Both the position numbers and the translations under genes were made by a program. Shown piece by piece: positions 48,425 through 55,062 of a DNA stretch of 64,000 nucleotides (position 1 is the first letter of the stretch; every line of letters starts with the position of its first letter). The stretch is from Ignavibacteriota bacterium (GTDB lineage Bacteria; Bacteroidota; Ignavibacteria; UBA10030; SZUA-254): the NCBI GenBank assembly GCA_025358305.1, contig JANYJZ010000032.1, forward strand, positions 26,904 through 90,903. Reading direction: 5' to 3'. A model generated the notes under the pieces. That model did not search any database. It saw only the letters and a program-made list of their open reading frames with translations, and was not told the origin of the DNA.

Positions 48425-48727
48425 ATGGTCAAATTGATCGCGCTCTACCGCAAACCGGCGGATGCCGCCGCCTTCGACAAGTATTACTACGACGTTCATA
48501 TCCCGCTCGTGAGAAAGGTCCCGGGACTCCGGAAAATCGAGATCACCTCCATTACCGGTGCGCCGATGGGCGAGGCCAAGTACCATGTCATGGCGGAAAT
48601 GTATTACGATTCCATGGACGCGATGAACGCCGCGAACGCCTCCCCGGAGGGGAAGGCCGTCTTCCAGGACGTGATGAAGTTCGCCGCGGACGTCATCATT
48701 CCCTTCTTCGGCGAGGTCCGCGCTTGA
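48425..48727 (+). CDS. EthD family protein
   Basis: MVKLIALYRKP.D..AFDKYY...HIPLV.K.PGL...AEMYYDS...SPEGK. Confidence 0.85.
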   Translation: MVKLIALYRKPADAAAFDKYYYDVHIPLVRKVPGLRKIEITSITGAPMGEAKYHVMAEMYYDSMDAMNAANASPEGKAVFQDVMKFAADVIIPFFGEVRA

Positions 48728-49578
48728 GCCGCTACCGCGGAAAGTCGTCGCGGGAGCTCCGGTTCAAGAACCTCCTCTATGAGAAGAAGAACTGGCGCGC
48801 CACGATCACGATCAACCGCCCGAAGGTTCATAACGCGCTCGATTTCGACACGCTCGTCGAATTGAAGGCAGCCTTTGAGGACGCGAGCTGGGACGACACG
48901 GTCGCCGTCGTCATTCTCACCGGCGCCGGGTCGAAGGCATTTTGCACCGGCGCAGACATGAAGGAGTGGAGCAAGGAGTTCCTCGTTCAGCCCTCCGATT
49001 TCTATAAATGGATGGGCGTGTTCATTGAAACTTTCGACCGCTTGCGCAATATCGGCAAGCCGACCATCGCGCGCTTGAACGGCATGGTCGTCGGCGGAGG
49101 CAACGAGCTGCAGATGTCGTGCGACCTGGCGATCGCCGCCGACGACGTCACCATCCGGCACGTCGGCGTCGCCAGAGGGAGCGTCCCGGCGGCCGGTGCC
49201 ACGCAGTGGCTCCCCCTCATCGTGGGCGACCGGCGCGCACGGGAGATCATCCTTCTCTGCGAACCGATCACGGCCGCCAAGGCGCTCGACTGGGGCCTCG
49301 TCACCCGGGTCGTCCCCCGCAAGGGGCTCGACGCCGCCGTCGACGCGATGGCCGAACAGCTCGTCAACAAGCTCCCCGAATCAACGCGCTACGCGAAGCA
49401 GCAGCTGAACTTCTGGCGCGACTTCTCCTGGAGCCTCACGATCGGACACCTGCGCGACTGGCTCACCGTCCATACGGGCTCGGAGGAAGTGGCCGAAGGC
49501 GTCCGCGCGTTCGTCGAGAAGCGTCCCATCGATTACAAGAAGGTCCGCCGCAGAAGCACCGCTCGGCGGAAGAAGTAG
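48724..49578 (+). CDS. Crotonase-superfamily enzyme, Oah/BadI-like (ring-opening acyl-CoA hydrolase-like)
   Basis: AFCTGAD, NGMVVGGGNE, GSVPAAGATQWLPLIVG, LCEPITA; TTG start overlaps the ethD stop (TTGA). Confidence 0.75.
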   Translation: MSRYRGKSSRELRFKNLLYEKKNWRATITINRPKVHNALDFDTLVELKAAFEDASWDDTVAVVILTGAGSKAFCTGADMKEWSKEFLVQPSDFYKWMGVFIETFDRLRNIGKPTIARLNGMVVGGGNELQMSCDLAIAADDVTIRHVGVARGSVPAAGATQWLPLIVGDRRAREIILLCEPITAAKALDWGLVTRVVPRKGLDAAVDAMAEQLVNKLPESTRYAKQQLNFWRDFSWSLTIGHLRDWLTVHTGSEEVAEGVRAFVEKRPIDYKKVRRRSTARRKK

Positions 49579-49637: not shown

Positions 49638-51560
49638 ATGCGGTCGTTCTTCCGGGAACGGCGGCTCCTCCTCGCCCTTGCCGCCGCAGTGGCCGCCGTC
49701 GCCGCGTTCGCAGCGACGGCCGATCCGGAGCGGACCCTCACGTTCCTCCCCGGATCGCAGCCCGGCACGGTCGACACCGTCGGCTCGGGCGGATCGCTCC
49801 TGTGCAAGCAGTGCCACTACTCCCCCTCCCTGAGCCGCCCGGTCACCATCTCCACTGACTGGTCGGGAAGCATGATGGCGCAGTCGGCGCGCGACCCCGT
49901 CTTTTACGCCGCGATGGCCGTGGCGAACAAGTACGCCTCCAAGGCCGGGAACAACGCCGGCGAATTCTGCATCCGGTGCCACTCCCCGACGGGATGGCTC
50001 GCGGGACACTCCGAGGACATCTCCGGCCAATCCCTGCGCGGCACCGACCTCGACGGCATACAGTGCGAATACTGCCACCGGAGCGTCGACCCCCTTGACC
50101 CCGACACGAGCGTCGCGCCGCTGACGTTCGCCGTGCCGGGATACGGCAACGGCATGCACGTCGTCCAGCGCATGAGTGAACCGAAGCGCGGCCCGTTCGA
50201 CAGCACGTCGGCGCCGCACACGACGCGCTACGACCCGTTCCAATCGCGCTCCGAGCTCTGCGCGGTCTGCCACGAGGTGAGCAATCCGTTCAACACGACA
50301 GGCCAGGACCGGATCTTTCTCTCCCCGCACCTTTACGCGCCGATCGAACGAACGTATAGCGAATGGCTCATGAGCGCGTACAGCGCGAAGGGGGATTCCG
50401 GGACGTGCCAGAGCTGCCACATGCCGTCGGCCGCGGGGTACATGTGCGTCTACACCACCTCCCCCTTGCGCCCCGACATCGCGAGCCACGACCTGACCGG
50501 CGGCAACACGTTCGTGCCGTCGATCCTCCCCGATTTCTGGCCCGGCCTCGATACAAATGCGCTCGCGGCCGGCAGCGCCAGGGCGTCCGCGGCCCTGGGC
50601 CGCGCAGCGGAACTCACGCTCGACGCCTACCGCCTCGGCGACACGGTCGTCGCGTCGATCCGCGTCACGAACCTGACCGGGCACAAGCTCCCGACGGGCT
50701 ATCCCGATGGCCGGCGGATCTGGATCGGCGTCGTCGGCCGGAACGCCGCAGGAGACACCCTGTTCCGGTCCGGATCCTACGACACGGACTCCGCCCGGCT
50801 CCTTCCGGACGCGCAGATACGGATCTACGAGGCGGTCTTCGGTCTGACGGACTCCGCCGCGCTACGCTACGGCCTCGCCGCCGGCGCATCCTTCCACTTC
50901 GCCCTCAACGACACGATCCTGAAAGACAACCGCATCCCGCCGATGGGGTTCACGAACGCAGGGTTCGCCACGAGGCTCGCCTCGCCCGTCGGCGCCACGT
51001 ATGCCGACGGACAATACTGGGACAGGGCGCTCTACCGGCTCCCGGCGGCGATCACGCAGGTGAGCGCCACGCTCAGCTACCAGACCATCAGCCGCGAATA
51101 CATCGAATTCCTTGCCGCGGAGAACGCCGGCAACTTCTATGATTGGAATGACTGGGGCGCGCGCCTCCAGACCTCGTGGAAAAACCGCGGACGCTCCTCG
51201 CCGGTCCTGATGACGTCCGCTTCCGCCGCGGTCCGCGATTCAACGACTGCGGTCGGTGAGATTGCGTCGCTCCCGTTCCTGTTCGAGCTCCGGCAGAACT
51301 ACCCGAACCCGTTCAACCCCTCGACGGTCATCCGGTTCTCTCTCCCGCCCGACGGGATTCAAGGTGACGCGGACGCGCTCACGAGCGTGCGGATCTACGA
51401 CGTGCTGGGGCGCGAGGTCGCCTTGGTCCTCGACGAGCGGCTCGCCCCGGGGTCCTACGCCCGAACCTGGAACGCCGCCGGAGAGCCGAGTGGGATCTAC
51501 TTTTGCCGACTCGTACGCGGGACACTCTCCCGCACCGAAAAGATGCTCTTGATCCGGTAG
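49638..51560 (+). CDS. Secreted pentaheme c-type cytochrome with T9SS type A C-terminal sorting domain
   Basis: Signal peptide MRSFFRERRLLLALAAAVAAVAAFAATA; five CxxCH motifs (49803, 49968, 50064, 50259, 50406); C-terminal QNYPNPFNPST...IYDVLGREV...SGIYFCRL...KMLLIR. Confidence 0.88.
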   Translation: MRSFFRERRLLLALAAAVAAVAAFAATADPERTLTFLPGSQPGTVDTVGSGGSLLCKQCHYSPSLSRPVTISTDWSGSMMAQSARDPVFYAAMAVANKYASKAGNNAGEFCIRCHSPTGWLAGHSEDISGQSLRGTDLDGIQCEYCHRSVDPLDPDTSVAPLTFAVPGYGNGMHVVQRMSEPKRGPFDSTSAPHTTRYDPFQSRSELCAVCHEVSNPFNTTGQDRIFLSPHLYAPIERTYSEWLMSAYSAKGDSGTCQSCHMPSAAGYMCVYTTSPLRPDIASHDLTGGNTFVPSILPDFWPGLDTNALAAGSARASAALGRAAELTLDAYRLGDTVVASIRVTNLTGHKLPTGYPDGRRIWIGVVGRNAAGDTLFRSGSYDTDSARLLPDAQIRIYEAVFGLTDSAALRYGLAAGASFHFALNDTILKDNRIPPMGFTNAGFATRLASPVGATYADGQYWDRALYRLPAAITQVSATLSYQTISREYIEFLAAENAGNFYDWNDWGARLQTSWKNRGRSSPVLMTSASAAVRDSTTAVGEIASLPFLFELRQNYPNPFNPSTVIRFSLPPDGIQGDADALTSVRIYDVLGREVALVLDERLAPGSYARTWNAAGEPSGIYFCRLVRGTLSRTEKMLLIR

Positions 51561-51633: not shown

Positions 51634-52407
51634 ATGCCATACACATCGATCATCGTCACCCGAGAAGAGGGCTACGCCGTCGTCCAATTGAACCGGCCCG
51701 AGGTCCTCAACGCGATCAGCATGCAGCTCATGCAGGAGCTCGTCGACGCGCTCGAAGCCCTCGACCGGGAGGACGCCGTCCGCGCGATCATCCTCACCGG
51801 CAACGAGAAGGCGTTCGCCGCCGGGGCCGACATCACCGAAATGGCGGGCGCGGGAGCCGTCGAGATGCTCGTGCGCGATCAGTTCGCCCGGTGGGACCGC
51901 ATTCGGAAGATCAAAAAGCCGATCATCGCCGCCGTAAGCGGATTCGCGCTCGGGGGAGGATGCGAGATCACGATGTCGTGCGACATCATCATCGCCTCGG
52001 AGACCGCGAAGTTCGGCCAGCCGGAGATCTCCATCGGCGTCATGCCCGGGGCGGGGGGAACCCAGCGCCTCACGCGCGCCGTGGGCAAGGCGAAGGCGAT
52101 GGAGATGGTCCTTACCGGCAGGATGATCACGGCCGACGAGGCCCTGCGCTGGGGACTCATCAACAAGGTGGTGCCGGTCGAGTACTACCTCGAAGAGGCG
52201 CGCGCGATGGCCCGGGAGATCGCCGCCAAACCGCCCTTGGCCGTCCGGCTCGCGAAGGAGGCCGTCTTGAAGTCGTTCGACACGACGATCGAGGGGGGCC
52301 TGGAGTTCGAACGGAAGAACTTTTACCTCCTGTTCGCCTCCGAGGATCAGAAGGAAGGCATGGCCGCCTTCACCGGAAAGCGCAAACCCGACTGGAAAGG
52401 AAAATAG
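51634..52407 (+). CDS. Enoyl-CoA hydratase (PaaF-like)
   Basis: LNRPEVLNA, AFAAGADI, GGGCE, FGQPEI..GVMPGAGGTQRL, EDQKEGM.AF. Confidence 0.9.
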   Translation: MPYTSIIVTREEGYAVVQLNRPEVLNAISMQLMQELVDALEALDREDAVRAIILTGNEKAFAAGADITEMAGAGAVEMLVRDQFARWDRIRKIKKPIIAAVSGFALGGGCEITMSCDIIIASETAKFGQPEISIGVMPGAGGTQRLTRAVGKAKAMEMVLTGRMITADEALRWGLINKVVPVEYYLEEARAMAREIAAKPPLAVRLAKEAVLKSFDTTIEGGLEFERKNFYLLFASEDQKEGMAAFTGKRKPDWKGK

Positions 52408-52563: not shown

Positions 52564-55062
52564 ATGAACCGATTCAGCTTATCCGTGTTGTTTCTCTGCC
52601 TCTTTCCCGTGCTTGTATCCGCGCAGGTCAAAGAAGTGCCACGGACGACGTTCGCCGCACCGTGGGAGTTCATGGGACCGACGAACGTCCAGGGCCGCGT
52701 TCTTTCCATCGCCATCAACCCTCACAACTCCTCGACGATCTACGCCGGATCAGCCGGAGGCGGACTCTGGCGGTCGCGCACGGCGGGCCTCGGAGGCGAC
52801 TGGCAGCGGATCAACACCGGGTTCCCCATCGCGAGCATCTCCGCGATCGCGATCGACTCCACCGACTCCAACACCATTTACATCGGCACGGGCGAGGTCT
52901 ACCGCTACCACGCGGCCTTCGGCCCTTCCCTCGACCGGACGACGCAGGGGAGCTACGGCTATGGCATTCTCAAGACGACGAACGGCGGCGCCACCTGGAC
53001 GCAGCTGCTCCCCTGGTCCCCGAGCGACCAGCGCGGCGTCGAGGTCATCCGGCTCAACCCGTTCAACCCCAAGACCATCCTGGCCGGCACGACCGAAGGT
53101 CTCTACCGTTCGACCGACGGGGGCGGCTCGTGGACGCGCCCGCTCGACGCGCTCATGGTCCAGGACATCGTCTTCGACCATAACGACACGACGCTTGTCA
53201 TGGCGACCTGCGGCAACTTCCAGAGCACCGGTTGGGGCGGGTATCTCTCGCTCGACGGCGGCGCGGGATGGTTTCGGATGGATAATTTCCCCACGTTCAG
53301 AGGGAAGGCGCGGCTCGAGTCGTTCGCCGCGGACCCGAACGTCGTGTTCGCCACCGTCGGAAGCGACACGGGCATGCGCGGTACCATCTGGAAGACGACC
53401 GACTTCGGCGCGACGTGGGACACGCTCTTGAGCGGCCGCACCTATGAGGCGGGCTGGTACGGCCACTTCGTCGTCGTCCATCCCGAGGATGCGCAGTCGC
53501 TCATTCTGGGATCGAGCCTCATGTACGCGACGAGCAATGGCGGCGCGACGCTCCTCGACGCGTCGGGAAGCGGCGTACGCAACCACAACTATGTGCACGA
53601 TCCCGCGGATCCGAACAAGGTTTACGTCGTGGGAGACAACGGAGTGTTCGTCACGAACGATTTCGGATACGGCTATACGAATATCAGCACCGGCATGGTG
53701 ACCGCGCAGCTGCAGAACGGATTCTCGAACTCGGCCACCAGCCCGAACCTCGCCCTCGGGCAGATGGTCGGGACGCCCGGCGTCACCTTCACCGGCTCCA
53801 CCACGTGGACAATCGGCAACGGCGACGAGGCGGGGTGGACGGCGATCTCCCAGGTGAACGACAGCCTCCTCTACCGCAACCTGAGTTACGGGACGTTCGT
53901 CGTGCGGTCCACCGACCGGGGCACTTCCTACAACACGTTCAACTTCGGCGGTGGTGGTGGCGGCGGGGTCTTCACCTTTTACCCGTCGAGCTGGAGCTCG
54001 CCCATGCTCGCCTCCCCTTCGAACCCGAACATCCTCTACGTCGGCCACGACCGCGTGTCGAAGTCGGTCGACAGCTCCTCGAGCTGGACCCAGACCAGCG
54101 GCGCCCTCGACGGCAATTTCGCGATCTCCATGGCGATGTCCGCCAAGAGCCCTGACACGGTCTTCGTCGGTATGGCGCCGGTCAACGTGCCCGCGCATAT
54201 CTTCCGGACGACGAACGGCGGCACCTCATGGCAGAACGTCACCGGGACGCTTCCGAATAAGTTCCCGCTCGACCTCGCGGTCGATCCGTCGAACGCCGTC
54301 AACGTCTACGCGGCTTTCGGCGGATACGGCACCGGACATCTCTACAAGAGCACGAACACCGGTTCGACCTGGTCCGACGTCTCCGCATCGCTTCCCGACG
54401 CGCCGATCTCGGCCGTCGTCGTCGATCCGCTGAGCTCGGCGATGGTCTACGCCGGAGGCGACGCCGGCGTCTACGTTTCGACCGACGCGGGCGCGACGTG
54501 GTCGGCGTTCAACGAGGCGCTGCCCGAAGGCTGCATGGTCTCCGAATTCACCATCAGCCCCTCGAACAGAAAGCTCCGGCTCGCGACGCACGGAAGCGGC
54601 ATGTTCCAGCACGACCTCTTCTCTCCGACGGCCACGACGGTGGACGTCGCCCTCTCCGGGAACTGGAACCTCATCTCTTTGCCGCTCAATCCGATCAACA
54701 CGACGCCGGCGGCGCATTTTCCGACACTTCTGGCCGGGACGCTCTACAGCTACGACGGGCAGTACCTCGCCGCGACGAGCCTCGTCCCCGGGAAGGCGTA
54801 CTGGGCAAAATTCCCCGTCGGCACGACGACGCAGCAGGTGAGCGGGCCCGCCCTCTCGGTCGTCGACGTCACGCTCAAGAAAGGCTGGAACCTCGTCGGC
54901 TCGATCGACCACGACGTGGCCGCCCCCTCGGGCGGGATCATCGCGAGCAGCTGGTACGAGTTCACCCCCACGGGGTATGCCGTGGCCGCGACCTTGAAGC
55001 CGGGCCACGGGTACTGGCTCAAGGCGAGCGACGCCGGCTCGATCACCATCGGGACCCATTGA
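52564..55062 (+). CDS. Secreted BNR/Asp-box beta-propeller protein (VPS10/GH74-like)
   Basis: Signal peptide; about 12 S/T-x-D/N-x-G-x-T/S-W repeats; C-terminal duplicated WNL...G..YW.K module. Confidence 0.8.
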   Translation: MNRFSLSVLFLCLFPVLVSAQVKEVPRTTFAAPWEFMGPTNVQGRVLSIAINPHNSSTIYAGSAGGGLWRSRTAGLGGDWQRINTGFPIASISAIAIDSTDSNTIYIGTGEVYRYHAAFGPSLDRTTQGSYGYGILKTTNGGATWTQLLPWSPSDQRGVEVIRLNPFNPKTILAGTTEGLYRSTDGGGSWTRPLDALMVQDIVFDHNDTTLVMATCGNFQSTGWGGYLSLDGGAGWFRMDNFPTFRGKARLESFAADPNVVFATVGSDTGMRGTIWKTTDFGATWDTLLSGRTYEAGWYGHFVVVHPEDAQSLILGSSLMYATSNGGATLLDASGSGVRNHNYVHDPADPNKVYVVGDNGVFVTNDFGYGYTNISTGMVTAQLQNGFSNSATSPNLALGQMVGTPGVTFTGSTTWTIGNGDEAGWTAISQVNDSLLYRNLSYGTFVVRSTDRGTSYNTFNFGGGGGGGVFTFYPSSWSSPMLASPSNPNILYVGHDRVSKSVDSSSSWTQTSGALDGNFAISMAMSAKSPDTVFVGMAPVNVPAHIFRTTNGGTSWQNVTGTLPNKFPLDLAVDPSNAVNVYAAFGGYGTGHLYKSTNTGSTWSDVSASLPDAPISAVVVDPLSSAMVYAGGDAGVYVSTDAGATWSAFNEALPEGCMVSEFTISPSNRKLRLATHGSGMFQHDLFSPTATTVDVALSGNWNLISLPLNPINTTPAAHFPTLLAGTLYSYDGQYLAATSLVPGKAYWAKFPVGTTTQQVSGPALSVVDVTLKKGWNLVGSIDHDVAAPSGGIIASSWYEFTPTGYAVAATLKPGHGYWLKASDAGSITIGTH

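Follow-up and report, generated by a model that had tools for sequence, protein, structure and literature searches.

A pentaheme c-type cytochrome carrying a type IX secretion sorting domain in an Ignavibacteria genome, a candidate extracellular oxidoreductase

The window analyzed here is a stretch of 64,000 nucleotides from the Ignavibacteriota assembly GCA_025358305.1 (contig JANYJZ010000032.1). It contains a row of four genes on one strand, in the order EthD, crotonase, cytochrome, crotonase; 59 and 73 bp separate the cytochrome gene from the crotonases on either side. Its features, in window positions, are the following.

48425..48727, + strand: EthD-family gene, first of the four-gene row (PF07110, 59.9 bits; TIGR02118, 106.4 bits)
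48724..49578, + strand: upstream crotonase, enoyl-CoA hydratase family (ECH_1, 184.9 bits; no NCBIfam model at cut-off)
49638..51560, + strand: whole gene of the T9SS-tailed pentaheme cytochrome precursor, 640 aa (ORF translation; stop codon 51558-51560)
49638..49718, + strand: Sec-type signal peptide, about residues 1-27, without lipoprotein box (inspection of the translation)
49767..50507, + strand: heme-binding cap with five CxxCH, about residues 44-290 (alignment with the 5ZE8 cap)
49803..49817, + strand: heme motif 1, CKQCH, residues 56-60 (motif scan; kept in 73/73 ungapped relatives)
49860..49880, + strand: WSGSMMA, residues 75-81, holding Met80 (profile alignment to 5ZE8)
49968..49982, + strand: heme motif 2, CIRCH, residues 111-115 (motif scan)
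50064..50078, + strand: heme motif 3, CEYCH, residues 143-147 (motif scan, alignment of relatives)
50259..50273, + strand: heme motif 4, CAVCH, residues 208-212 (motif scan, alignment of relatives)
50406..50420, + strand: heme motif 5, CQSCH, residues 257-261 (motif scan, alignment of relatives)
50508..51242, + strand: Ig-like beta-sandwich region with inserts, about residues 291-535 (model pLDDT mostly 80-98; 5ZE8 alignment to residue 532)
50679..50705, + strand: loop GHKLPTGYP, residues 348-356, with GHKLPTG at 348-354 (alignments)
51243..51299, + strand: flexible linker, about residues 536-554 (pLDDT 34-48)
51300..51557, + strand: T9SS type A C-terminal sorting domain, residues 555-640 (TIGR04183, genome scan, family CTD profile)
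51634..52407, + strand: downstream crotonase, enoyl-CoA hydratase family (ECH_1, 283.6 bits; best NCBIfam model 352 bits, cut-off 396)

A sequence-only reading of this DNA had described a pentaheme cytochrome between two crotonases, and the ECH_1 matches bear out both flanking genes. The upstream crotonase probably starts with the TTG at 48724, overlapping the EthD stop (TTGA). MenB was considered for this gene and rejected (153.6 bits versus a cut-off of 342.7). As that reading had also remarked, no terminator is visible: a simple consensus scan, not tuned to this phylum, gave no terminator-like site on the + strand between 48200 and 52700.

Full-length homologs of the cytochrome share 49-78% identity with it. 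The five CxxCH motifs, all of which had been picked out from the letters, take up 10 of the 12 cysteines of the protein, leaving C270 and C623 only. When the protein sequence was shuffled 20,000 times, one CxxCH appeared in 74 shuffles and more than one in none. The Pfam model PF13435 matched with 21.9 bits, over its cut-off of 20.8. On these sequence grounds we have hardly any doubt that the gene encodes a real pentaheme c-type cytochrome. By inspection, its N-terminus reads as a Sec signal peptide, in agreement with the sequence-only reading, with three arginines, a 17-residue hydrophobic run, an AFA/AT site and no cysteine. Homologs begin at the same start in the alignment, and residues 2-25 form one helix in the structure model. 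The WSGSMMA stretch, the beta-rich domain and the GHKLPTG motif noted earlier are likewise present, at residues 75-81, 291-535 and 348-354.

The best structural match of the cytochrome model was the Thermochromatium tepidum cytochrome c552 (5ZE8), with a Z score of 21.8 and an rmsd of 3.0 Å over 334 residues at 23% identity, covering model residues 44-532. Foldseek gave an E value of 1.3e-12 for the same pair, and the entries ranked under 5ZE8 in the structure searches (VIA-align, Foldseek) matched Ig-like or tail domains only. When the family profile was compared with PDB sequences, 5ZE8 was again the best among solved structures (E 6.3e-10), and MccSep (9WT8) was found at E 2.2e-5. The heme cap is poorly modeled (pLDDT 30-60), as expected of a model lacking hemes. 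Taken together, model and profiles make it very probable that the core adopts the PHC fold (c552/ExtKL), a five-heme helical cap joined to an Ig-like beta domain.

In c552, as in the window protein, five CxxCH lie in the helical cap and are followed by the Ig-like domain, whose PTG loop and its histidine are common to both proteins. However, c552 is soluble, has 435 residues and carries no T9SS tail, whereas the window protein has about 90 more residues in the beta region, plus linker and tail. Moreover, a histidine of c552 stands in place of Met80, and alanine occupies the positions of Tyr355 and Lys350. The accessible part of one study states that the function of c552 is unknown and proposes, from predicted structures, that the PHC family is kin of archaeal cytochrome nanowires (PMC11976967).

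The second point of comparison is MccSep/ExtKL of Geobacter sulfurreducens, a newly described enzyme of sulfur respiration. It is a periplasmic polysulfide reductase, a homotetramer, which receives electrons from other cytochromes; its catalytic selenocysteine sits next to heme 2, on a loop of the Ig domain (PMC13510729). The window protein is distantly related to it, with weak sequence similarity. Both have the same architecture of five hemes and an Ig-like domain, and the Ig-domain loop TN..GH..P.G. aligns. The two proteins differ in that selenocysteine 325 is replaced by Tyr355 and that the heme-2-ligating cysteine of MccSep, located between motifs 4 and 5, has no counterpart here; the CC of MccSep aligns onto Ser229-Pro230 in a low-confidence stretch of the profile alignment. 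Furthermore, MccSep is periplasmic whereas the window protein bears an export tail. Membership in the MccSep selenoprotein family was rejected (NF040886, 26.1 bits versus a cut-off of 250, with neither Sec nor Cys at the loop site). For the region of MccSep Arg83, a phmmer search of residues 49-151 against PDB sequences returned chance matches only (ribosomal protein S11, antibodies). By homology with MccSep, heme 2 (CIRCH) is a candidate active-site heme.

Ligand assignments, including that of an open heme, were made from conservation counts and distant alignments. In the profile alignment to 5ZE8, Met80 faces the histidine of the c552 motif GSMH, and it is kept in 72 of the 73 ungapped relatives. 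The earlier idea that a methionine here replaces a histidine ligand thus gains support, and one heme is probably His/Met-ligated via Met80. Among 77 sequences, the conserved candidate sixth ligands for the five hemes were only Met80, His194, His284 and His349, Met173 being kept in just 52 of 77. Probably, then, one heme has neither His nor Met as sixth ligand. Four conserved distal ligands for five hemes may point to an enzyme rather than to a plain wire. His349, Lys350, Arg359 and Arg432 are invariant (77/77), Arg238 is nearly so (76/77), and Arg113 occurs in 95% or more of the rows. Position 355, aligned with Sec325 of MccSep, is a tyrosine in 72 relatives and a phenylalanine in 5 of the 77, showing that the tyrosine hydroxyl is not essential everywhere. 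Many non-heme residues, among them GHKLPTG, NRIPP, ERT-SEW and several arginines, are invariant between phyla whose proteins share 36-64% identity overall. Such conserved non-heme residues, together with an enzyme as relative, would favor an extracellular enzyme at least as much as a plain conduit.

The C-terminal part was compared with models of sorting domains. The sequence-only reading had placed a type A CTD from about 51294, and the NCBI model TIGR04183 indeed matched residues 555-637 with 26.8 bits, above its cut-off of 23. PF18962 (Por_Secre_tail) gave 24.3 bits, under its cut-off of 27. A genome-wide CTD scan detected the same tail at window positions 51300-51548 (29.8 bits), and a family CTD profile matched it with an E value of 1.9e-30. 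Many other proteins from the class have tails that are 44-56% identical to this one. In the genome itself, at least 112 CTD matches were counted, some on large proteins of 1000-4000 residues, and the family CTD profile retrieved 123 frames. A second T9SS-tailed cytochrome of the genome was rejected as a paralog, the tail alone being the common part (37% over 108 residues).

For the translocon and tail-processing parts of the T9SS, profile searches of the genome identified SprA (1037 bits, cut-off 200), PorV (273.4 bits, cut-off 250) and PorU (967.4 bits, cut-off 420). PorU was found in all 41 genomes of the class that were compared, above cut-off in 39 of them. CcmA, CcmB, CcmC, CcmE and CcmF form a colinear operon, in which every match lies under the curated cut-off, and the Pfam model of ResB had no match in the genome. 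Heme maturation therefore appears to proceed via Ccm (system I). The T9SS and heme-maturation genes that were located are all on contigs other than that of the window, which agrees with their reported absence from the window. A genome without a T9SS and a tail failing the HMM had been named as the computable outcomes that would speak against T9SS export; the genome carries T9SS genes and the tail passes the model.

In the T9SS described from Bacteroidota, GldK, GldL and GldM are core parts (motor and ring). None of them was matched in this 100%-complete genome by TIGR03525, TIGR03513, TIGR03517 or PF12081, though divergent forms are possible, and the GldM model matched 0 of 20 genomes of the class, against 20 of 61 genomes from elsewhere in the phylum. 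Therefore, the T9SS machinery appears here not to be of the textbook form. Nevertheless, a genome that keeps more than 110 tails has a system with so many clients that it is very likely functional. Compared with type A T9SS cargo, the cytochrome has the N-terminal signal peptide, the linker and, at its C-terminus, the beta-sandwich sorting domain (some 85 residues), and its host has SprA, PorV and PorU; the difference is that its class has no recognizable GldM. From these sequence features, we consider it likely that the cytochrome is T9SS cargo leaving the periplasm. The T9SS is known to export hydrolases, adhesins and motility proteins, and our literature searches found no paper describing a c-type cytochrome as such cargo. 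The cytochrome is probably a redox protein placed on or outside the surface by a route undescribed in the papers found. On another contig, a 27-kb cluster encodes a 13-heme/cytochrome b fusion, a Rieske protein with cytochrome b, DmsE-like multiheme cytochromes and NHL-repeat proteins. This cluster is a possible electron supply for the cytochrome.

A whole-protein search of 101 class genomes matched 56 of them, mostly by the tail alone, so that this tally is uninformative on the core family. Core-length matches were present in at least 15 class genomes, that of the window included, among the matches listed (94 weaker matches lay beyond). The core family as a whole comprises 3048 clusters at 50% identity (E up to 0.001), has matches in at least 590 stretches from species-level genomes and is common in Planctomycetota and Verrucomicrobiota. 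Literature searches found no characterized member, the studied distant relative being MccSep. Matching DNA was also found in four sequencing runs, all from one study and all possibly the source sample; no RNA run was among the matches listed.

When 76 relatives were placed in a tree built from the core alone, the type of tail tracked the host phylum. Every complete row of the Ignavibacteria/Bacteroidota clade carries the T9SS tail, as do 17 of 17 rows of an Eisenbacteria-dominated clade, 2 of which are labeled as other phyla. Among the rows from Planctomycetota and Verrucomicrobiota, some end in dockerin-like or other tails and some have no tail. In one Planctomycetota-dominated clade of 9 rows there is mostly no recognized tail, 8 rows stopping directly after the core; the proteins of this clade may be periplasmic. 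A domain scan, which covered 69 of 150 listed representatives, detected Por_Secre_tail on 9, a C-terminal FlgD_ig without Por_Secre_tail on 6, Dockerin_1 on 7 and the MopE copper motif on 6. PKD, fn3, cadherin-like, TSP3 and lectin modules were also observed, and one relative has an N-terminal match of plastocyanin/azurin type. That tails follow the host phylum argues for a job outside the cell.

Gene order was compared at 79 related loci by tblastn of the window's own neighbor proteins. Crotonases lie directly on both sides of the cytochrome in 11 of the 79 loci, and the upstream crotonase is upstream on the same strand in 20. The four-gene order with EthD and both crotonases is shared by relatives that all belong to one clade, and four loci carry an insert of about 2.5 kb that separates the upstream crotonase from the cytochrome. 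Within that clade the crotonases are 72-84% identical and the cytochromes 51-64%. Since the order is confined to one clade in which the crotonases are the better conserved, it may be simply inherited. At the 79 loci, crotonase neighbors were absent from the paralogous clade and from all other phyla. No outer-membrane conduit gene was found beside the cytochrome, and no neighbor is kept across phyla.

These observations can be assembled into a mechanism. The precursor would cross the inner membrane by Sec, the Ccm system I would attach the five hemes in the periplasm, and the SprA/PorV/PorU machinery would take up the folded protein via its type A CTD, so that the cytochrome would end anchored on the surface or released. 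Outside the cell, it would act as a terminal oxidoreductase, at which an electron path ends. Electrons would enter via exposed hemes and reach the conserved pocket between heme 2 (CIRCH) and the GHKLPTGYP loop of the Ig domain, where they would go to, or come from, an extracellular substrate. A T9SS-exported PHC cytochrome acting as an extracellular terminal oxidoreductase is, as a whole, our best explanation of sequence and model, and one that we believe and doubt in equal measure. On its catalytic part, a terminal oxidoreductase with a special heme-2 pocket in place of a plain wire, the homology leaves us just on the doubtful side of an even judgment.

An exported protein could also do its work with no catalytic site. 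With five six-coordinate hemes, it would only relay electrons, on the surface or as a released shuttle, and so link an outer-membrane conduit with minerals, humics or partner cells, like OmcA/MtrC-type or shuttle cytochromes. A multiheme protein with an export tag would suit this role, as would a genome with large multiheme clusters typical of outward electron transfer, and the fifth ligand in this lineage could be Met173 or another residue. In the accessible parts of two studies, Ignavibacteria-assigned bioanode genomes are rich in multiheme cytochromes and porin-cytochrome clusters (PMC7399161), and the nanowire kinship proposed for the PHC family points the same way (PMC11976967). The MtrC/MtrF Pfam domain, however, stays under its cut-off (24.3 bits versus 30). 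Residues of the GHKLPTG, NRIPP, ERT-SEW and arginine kind, invariant across phyla, form a pattern that surface relay cytochromes are not known to show. The family is, besides, common in Planctomycetota and Verrucomicrobiota, which are not known for mineral respiration. We therefore regard plain electron carriage as rather unlikely. An extracellular enzyme that draws no electrons from the cell would fit the lack, in any phylum, of a conserved conduit or partner gene beside the cytochrome. It would use two extracellular substrates, for instance in a peroxidase-type reaction in which peroxide oxidizes organic matter, Fe(II) or Mn(II), or in the detoxification of an oxidant. The fusions of relatives to dockerin, PKD, lectin and MopE copper motifs, and in one case to a plastocyanin/azurin-like domain, would suit secreted enzymes of organic-matter degraders. 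A His/Met heme (through Met80) beside one that lacks a conserved sixth ligand would resemble the arrangement in bacterial diheme peroxidases. This idea is nonetheless built on domain company and on the absence of partners; profile (Pfam, NCBIfam) and sequence searches gave no likeness to any peroxidase family, and the sole characterized relative is a reductase supplied by other cytochromes. Such a self-sufficient enzyme seems improbable to us.

Two further readings concern the location of the protein and its neighbors. The cytochrome might stay in the periplasm like c552 and MccSep, its tail being vestigial or serving another purpose, and the unrecognized GldK, GldL and GldM of the genome, the likewise unrecognized GldM of the class and the score of PF18962 under its cut-off would all be in keeping with this. 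What makes it quite improbable is that the tail is retained in all complete rows of two clades and closely resembles many other tails of the class, that PorU is universal in the class, and that the genome has more than 110 such tails, including on proteins of 1000-4000 residues. The sequence-only reading had further proposed a functional unit with the two crotonases, in which the cytochrome would be co-expressed with CoA-dependent catabolism and dispose of its electrons. Four genes on one strand with short gaps, the probable overlap of the EthD stop with the crotonase start, the untuned scan without terminator-like site on the + strand and the 11 and 20 loci of 79 that share crotonase neighbors are compatible with it. 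Yet the order occurs within one clade alone, where it may be simply inherited, and is interrupted by the 2.5 kb insert in four loci. The crotonases are missing in the paralogous clade and in all other phyla and match no specific NCBIfam enzyme model. Crotonases are, moreover, cytoplasmic enzymes that transfer no electrons. A functional link to these neighbors appears highly improbable.

Beyond the window, the terminal oxidoreductase reading can be extended to the family. The core may define a very large family of extracellular five-heme enzymes, not wires, whose pocket re-uses the heme-2/Ig-loop arrangement of MccSep with an invariant lysine, and with tyrosine in place of selenocysteine. Several phyla would export the same core by a tag of their own (T9SS tail, dockerin, others), and in Ignavibacteria a type IX system without recognizable GldM, and in this genome without recognizable GldK or GldL, would export folded, heme-bound cytochromes. 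We put this extended proposal forward tentatively, doubting that it holds in full.

MtrC and OmcA of Shewanella, outer-membrane decaheme lipoproteins exported by the type II system, resemble the window protein in the position and role proposed for it, being multiheme cytochromes exposed at the outside of a Gram-negative cell. In contrast, the window protein has five hemes instead of ten, no lipoprotein signal, another fold and another export route, and membership in the MtrC/OmcA family was rejected (PF22113, 24.3 bits versus 30; TIGR03507, 15.8 versus 209.3). [quoted passage not shown] The likeness is thus that of a c552-type pentaheme protein; unlike the window gene, PtdA is adjoined by a porin and further cytochromes, and that part of the description reports no T9SS tail.

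Overall, cytochromes are known to come to lie outside Gram-negative cells in porin-cytochrome conduits, as lipoproteins secreted by the type II system or as cytochrome filaments. If true, a type IX route would be a fourth, and would apply to the group of Ignavibacteria, Bacteroidota and Eisenbacteria. According to the accessible parts of two studies, members of this group occur on electrodes and in iron-dosed sludge (PMC7399161, PMC11495043), without a known mechanism. T9SS cargo would then widen from hydrolases and adhesins to redox proteins loaded with cofactors. Since the family is large and no characterized member was found, an activity screen of one purified member could assign a function to thousands of genes. 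If true, export by the type IX system would constitute a new route for respiratory or redox chemistry at the cell surface.

The frame at 49638-51560 (+) was translated into 640 residues. It can be extended upstream to 49119; the extension runs into the preceding crotonase and is absent from homologs, and the Met at 49638 is where the alignment of full-length relatives starts. Ten of the 12 Cys sit in five CxxCH motifs (residues 56, 111, 143, 208 and 257). When the residues of the protein were shuffled 20,000 times, one such motif arose in 74 shuffles and two in none. By inspection, the N-terminus is a Sec signal peptide with three Arg, a 17-residue hydrophobic run and an AFA/AT site, and it carries no lipobox Cys. 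Pfam cytochrome matches were weak: Cytochrome_C554 scored 21.9 bits, marginally over its cut-off of 20.8, and the MtrC/MtrF domain 24.3 bits, under its cut-off of 30. Residues 555-637 matched the NCBIfam model TIGR04183, proposed beforehand as a check on the tail, with 26.8 bits (cut-off 23). With the five heme motifs, the signal peptide and this tail, the sequence-only reading of the frame as a pentaheme cytochrome carrying a T9SS type A sorting signal was therefore correct wherever it could be checked.

The Pfam tail model Por_Secre_tail stayed under its cut-off (24.3 against 27 bits). About seven additional residues lie between the first two strands of the tail (window ~51360-51400, residues ~576-590) and are common to the window protein and three of its closest relatives in the alignment displayed. 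This insert probably lowers the model scores, which would explain the Pfam result. The tail is 44-56% identical to many other protein tails of the host genome and of the class. In the host genome (3.2 Mb, 42 contigs, 100% complete), TIGR04183 matched at least 112 proteins, including the window protein, a lower bound since a T9SS-tailed cytochrome of contig 3 is missing from that list. A profile made from the family's own tails retrieved 123 frames. On contig 25, a 1022-residue frame (C25:160999-164067) combines one CxxCH with a T9SS tail that the family tail profile matches strongly (E 2.4e-28); the lone motif could reflect a monoheme protein or chance.

The sequence-only reading had called for a search of the genome for sprA, porV, porU and ccm or ccs genes. 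SprA (1037 bits), PorV (273.4 bits) and PorU (967.4 bits) were all present over their cut-offs. PorU was found in 41 of 41 class genomes sampled, in 39 of them over the cut-off. The GldK, GldL and GldM models had no match in the host genome, and the GldM model matched none of 20 class genomes, the host included. The GldM model itself works, because it matched 20 of 61 genomes from the remainder of the phylum. These searches indicate that the motor of the tail-dependent system of the class is very divergent or that the system is otherwise built. With more than 110 clients, the system of the host is very likely functional, yet it would not be a textbook T9SS; tail-dependent secretion in the class may operate with no motor that can be recognised. 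Regarding heme maturation, CcmA, B, C, E and F form a colinear row on a contig other than that of the window. Each frame is the best match of its model, with a score under the curated cut-off, and ResB was not found by model search. Heme maturation is predicted to be covered by this row.

To the fold of the core, an AlphaFold2 model was built from 45 homologs and without hemes (mean pLDDT 72). The model was good in the beta region (290-535) and tail and poor in the heme cap, as expected without hemes; the linker (~536-555) was disordered. By far the best solved-structure match was c552, the pentaheme cytochrome of Thermochromatium tepidum (PDB 5ZE8; Foldseek E 1.3e-12). VIA-align superposed model residues 44-532 on residues 35-435 of the chain (Z 21.8, rmsd 3.0 A, 334 residues), the runners-up having Z below 10 and being restricted to Ig-like domains. 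The family profile matched 5ZE8 with E 6.3e-10 and MccSep, the ExtKL protein of Geobacter sulfurreducens (PDB 9WT8), with E 2.2e-5. The available text on MccSep describes a periplasmic homotetrameric polysulfide reductase with a five-heme cap and an Ig-like stem, in which heme 2 has His/Cys ligation and the essential selenocysteine 325 enters the heme-2 pocket from an Ig-domain loop (PMC13510729, 2026). The accessible part of another study groups c552, ExtKL and cable-bacteria proteins in a "PHC" family, with a possible kinship to archaeal cytochrome nanowires (PMC11976967). The window gene adds a new member, with a T9SS tail, to this c552/ExtKL fold family.

The selenocysteine loop of MccSep aligns with the window-protein loop TNLTGHKLPTGYP. 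His349 is common to the window protein, c552 and MccSep, whereas Sec325 aligns to Tyr355, and the stretch separating heme motifs 4 and 5 contains no Cys to substitute for the MccSep heme ligand Cys239. Judged from this alignment, the window protein lacks the features that define MccSep. The GSMH that follows heme 1 in c552 reads GSMM in the window protein, which supports the earlier suggestion of a Met ligand. Conservation was assessed on an alignment of 77 family members from several phyla.

Conservation of window-protein residues in the family alignment
Five heme motifs: kept in every ungapped row
Met80: kept in 72 of 73 ungapped rows
His194: kept in 72 of 75 ungapped rows
His284: kept in 77 of 77
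His349: kept in 77 of 77
Met173: kept in 52 of 77
Lys350, Arg359, Arg432: each kept in 77 of 77
Arg238: kept in 76 of 77
Tyr355: kept in 72 of 77, Phe in 5

The conservation of Met80, His194, His284 and His349 points to four candidate sixth ligands for five hemes. This may leave one heme, heme 2 by homology, either open or with unusual ligation, beside a conserved basic pocket.

The gene order around the window gene is as follows.

Upstream: rpoC, rpoB, rplJ, nusG; a TMEM260-like glycosyltransferase on the opposite strand; then EthD and a crotonase
48724-48727: TTGA, in which the TGA stop of EthD overlaps the TTG that probably starts the upstream crotonase
49638-51560 (+): the cytochrome
Downstream: a second crotonase, a sortilin/BNR-repeat protein (52564-55062) and a PLD-family protein

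EthD, crotonase, cytochrome and crotonase lie on one strand, with gaps of 59 and 73 bp between the cytochrome and the crotonases, and the TTGA overlap suggests translational coupling. A generic promoter/terminator scan found a sole sigma-70-like site, ahead of EthD, and no + strand terminator-like site around the four-gene row. No specific NCBIfam enzyme matched the flanking crotonases; an identity as MenB was rejected by this comparison. Of 79 related loci, 11 have the gene directly between both crotonases, and in 20 the upstream crotonase precedes it on the same strand; all loci with the arrangement belong to the window protein's own clade. Among the 79 loci, these crotonases are absent from the paralogous Bacteroidota subclade and from all other phyla, barring one weak match (32% identity) at an Eisenbacteria locus. 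Thus, of the proposed tie to CoA catabolism, the recurring gene order stood, but it is kept in one lineage only and is the sole basis of the tie. Common descent, rather than function, may account for the four-gene order. The sortilin/BNR-repeat protein (832 residues, with a signal peptide) directly follows the downstream crotonase, and some related loci also have it on their downstream side; stretches close to several paralogous cytochrome loci match its last ~150 residues.

The host genome has 19 frames with at least two CxxCH. Two carry a T9SS tail, the window protein and a six-motif protein of 904 residues (C3:7791-10523, L001:2810-5524; TIGR04183 30.9 bits) whose likeness to the window protein is confined to the tail. 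A large respiratory cluster lies at ~189000-216000 of contig 33 (L002, L003).

Contents of the contig 33 cluster
A 13-motif (CxxCH) cytochrome fused to a cytochrome b561 domain
Cytochromes with 19, 11, 10, 8 and 6 CxxCH
Rieske protein and cytochrome b
Two NHL-repeat proteins
A CcmF-like frame
A 562-residue protein without a family match, which might be a porin

This cluster could feed electrons outward; nothing links it to the window gene. Elsewhere on the contig (C33:270529-274511), neighbouring frames, one with 31 CxxCH motifs and the other with 20, resemble very large multiheme cytochromes.

The family is large. In a 90%-clustered collection, 2924 of 8000 scored candidates had E <=0.001. 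Where given, the names of top matches were "T9SS type A sorting domain-containing protein", "multiheme c-type cytochrome", "cytochrome c554/c'-like protein", "mono/diheme cytochrome c family protein" and "hypothetical protein". The core (residues 37-536) retrieved 3048 representatives of 50% clusters at E <=0.001, 1637 at 1e-10 and 432 at 1e-30. In species-level genomes, at least 590 of 599 pattern-matched stretches encoded a relative, among the matches listed. A FastTree tree with local support values was calculated from the core columns of 76 rows, one of the 77 aligned rows having under 350 filled core residues. An Ignavibacteria/Bacteroidota clade of 26 rows (support 100) contains the window protein. 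A T9SS tail is present in 24 of these rows; a contig end truncates one of the remaining rows, and the last stops early, with the rest of it matched to a separate stretch. A mostly Eisenbacteria clade has the tail in 17 of 17 rows. Planctomycetota and Verrucomicrobiota rows have dockerin-like tails, other tails or none, and a Latescibacteria row with a T9SS tail is placed inside the Planctomycetota rows. The family members at L051, L061, L073 and L082, from records labelled Hyphomicrobiales, Terriglobia or Bifidobacteriaceae, fall inside clades of Eisenbacteria, Verrucomicrobiota or Planctomycetota; errors of binning or labelling seem to account for this better than gene transfer does. Five Verrucomicrobiota-type relatives (L040, L054, L061, L070, L079) have C-terminal extensions of 260-420 residues that end in short beta-strand-like motifs and were recognised by none of the models searched; they may be another sorting signal. 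A Pfam scan of 69 of the 150 listed representatives found Por_Secre_tail in 9, C-terminal FlgD_ig without Por_Secre_tail in 6, Dockerin_1 in 7 and a MopE copper-binding motif in 6, as well as PKD, fn3, cadherin-like, TSP3 and lectin modules. The tree and the scan therefore show the same core joined to the surface or export module customary in the host phylum.

Our literature searches, with subscription journals mostly outside their coverage, found no account of T9SS-exported c-type cytochromes. A bioanode study (PMC7399161) and an activated-sludge study (PMC11495043) report, in their available text, many predicted extracellular multiheme cytochromes in genomes of Ignavibacteria and Bacteroidota; "T9SS" is absent from that text in both, and "type IX" from that of PMC7399161. 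From its tail and the machinery of the host, the window protein is probably exported by a type IX-like system, and retention as a periplasmic protein, the location described for MccSep, appears very improbable. None of the related loci shows a conserved conduit, porin or cytochrome partner next to the gene. A self-contained enzyme is improbable, and a plain electron relay, passing electrons through its five hemes, is unlikely though worth keeping in mind. We tentatively favor, at a little under even chances, a terminal oxidoreductase that would act outside the cell with a special heme-2 pocket. Overall, the best indirect case for a family function outside the outer membrane comes from the joining of one core to phylum-specific surface and export modules.
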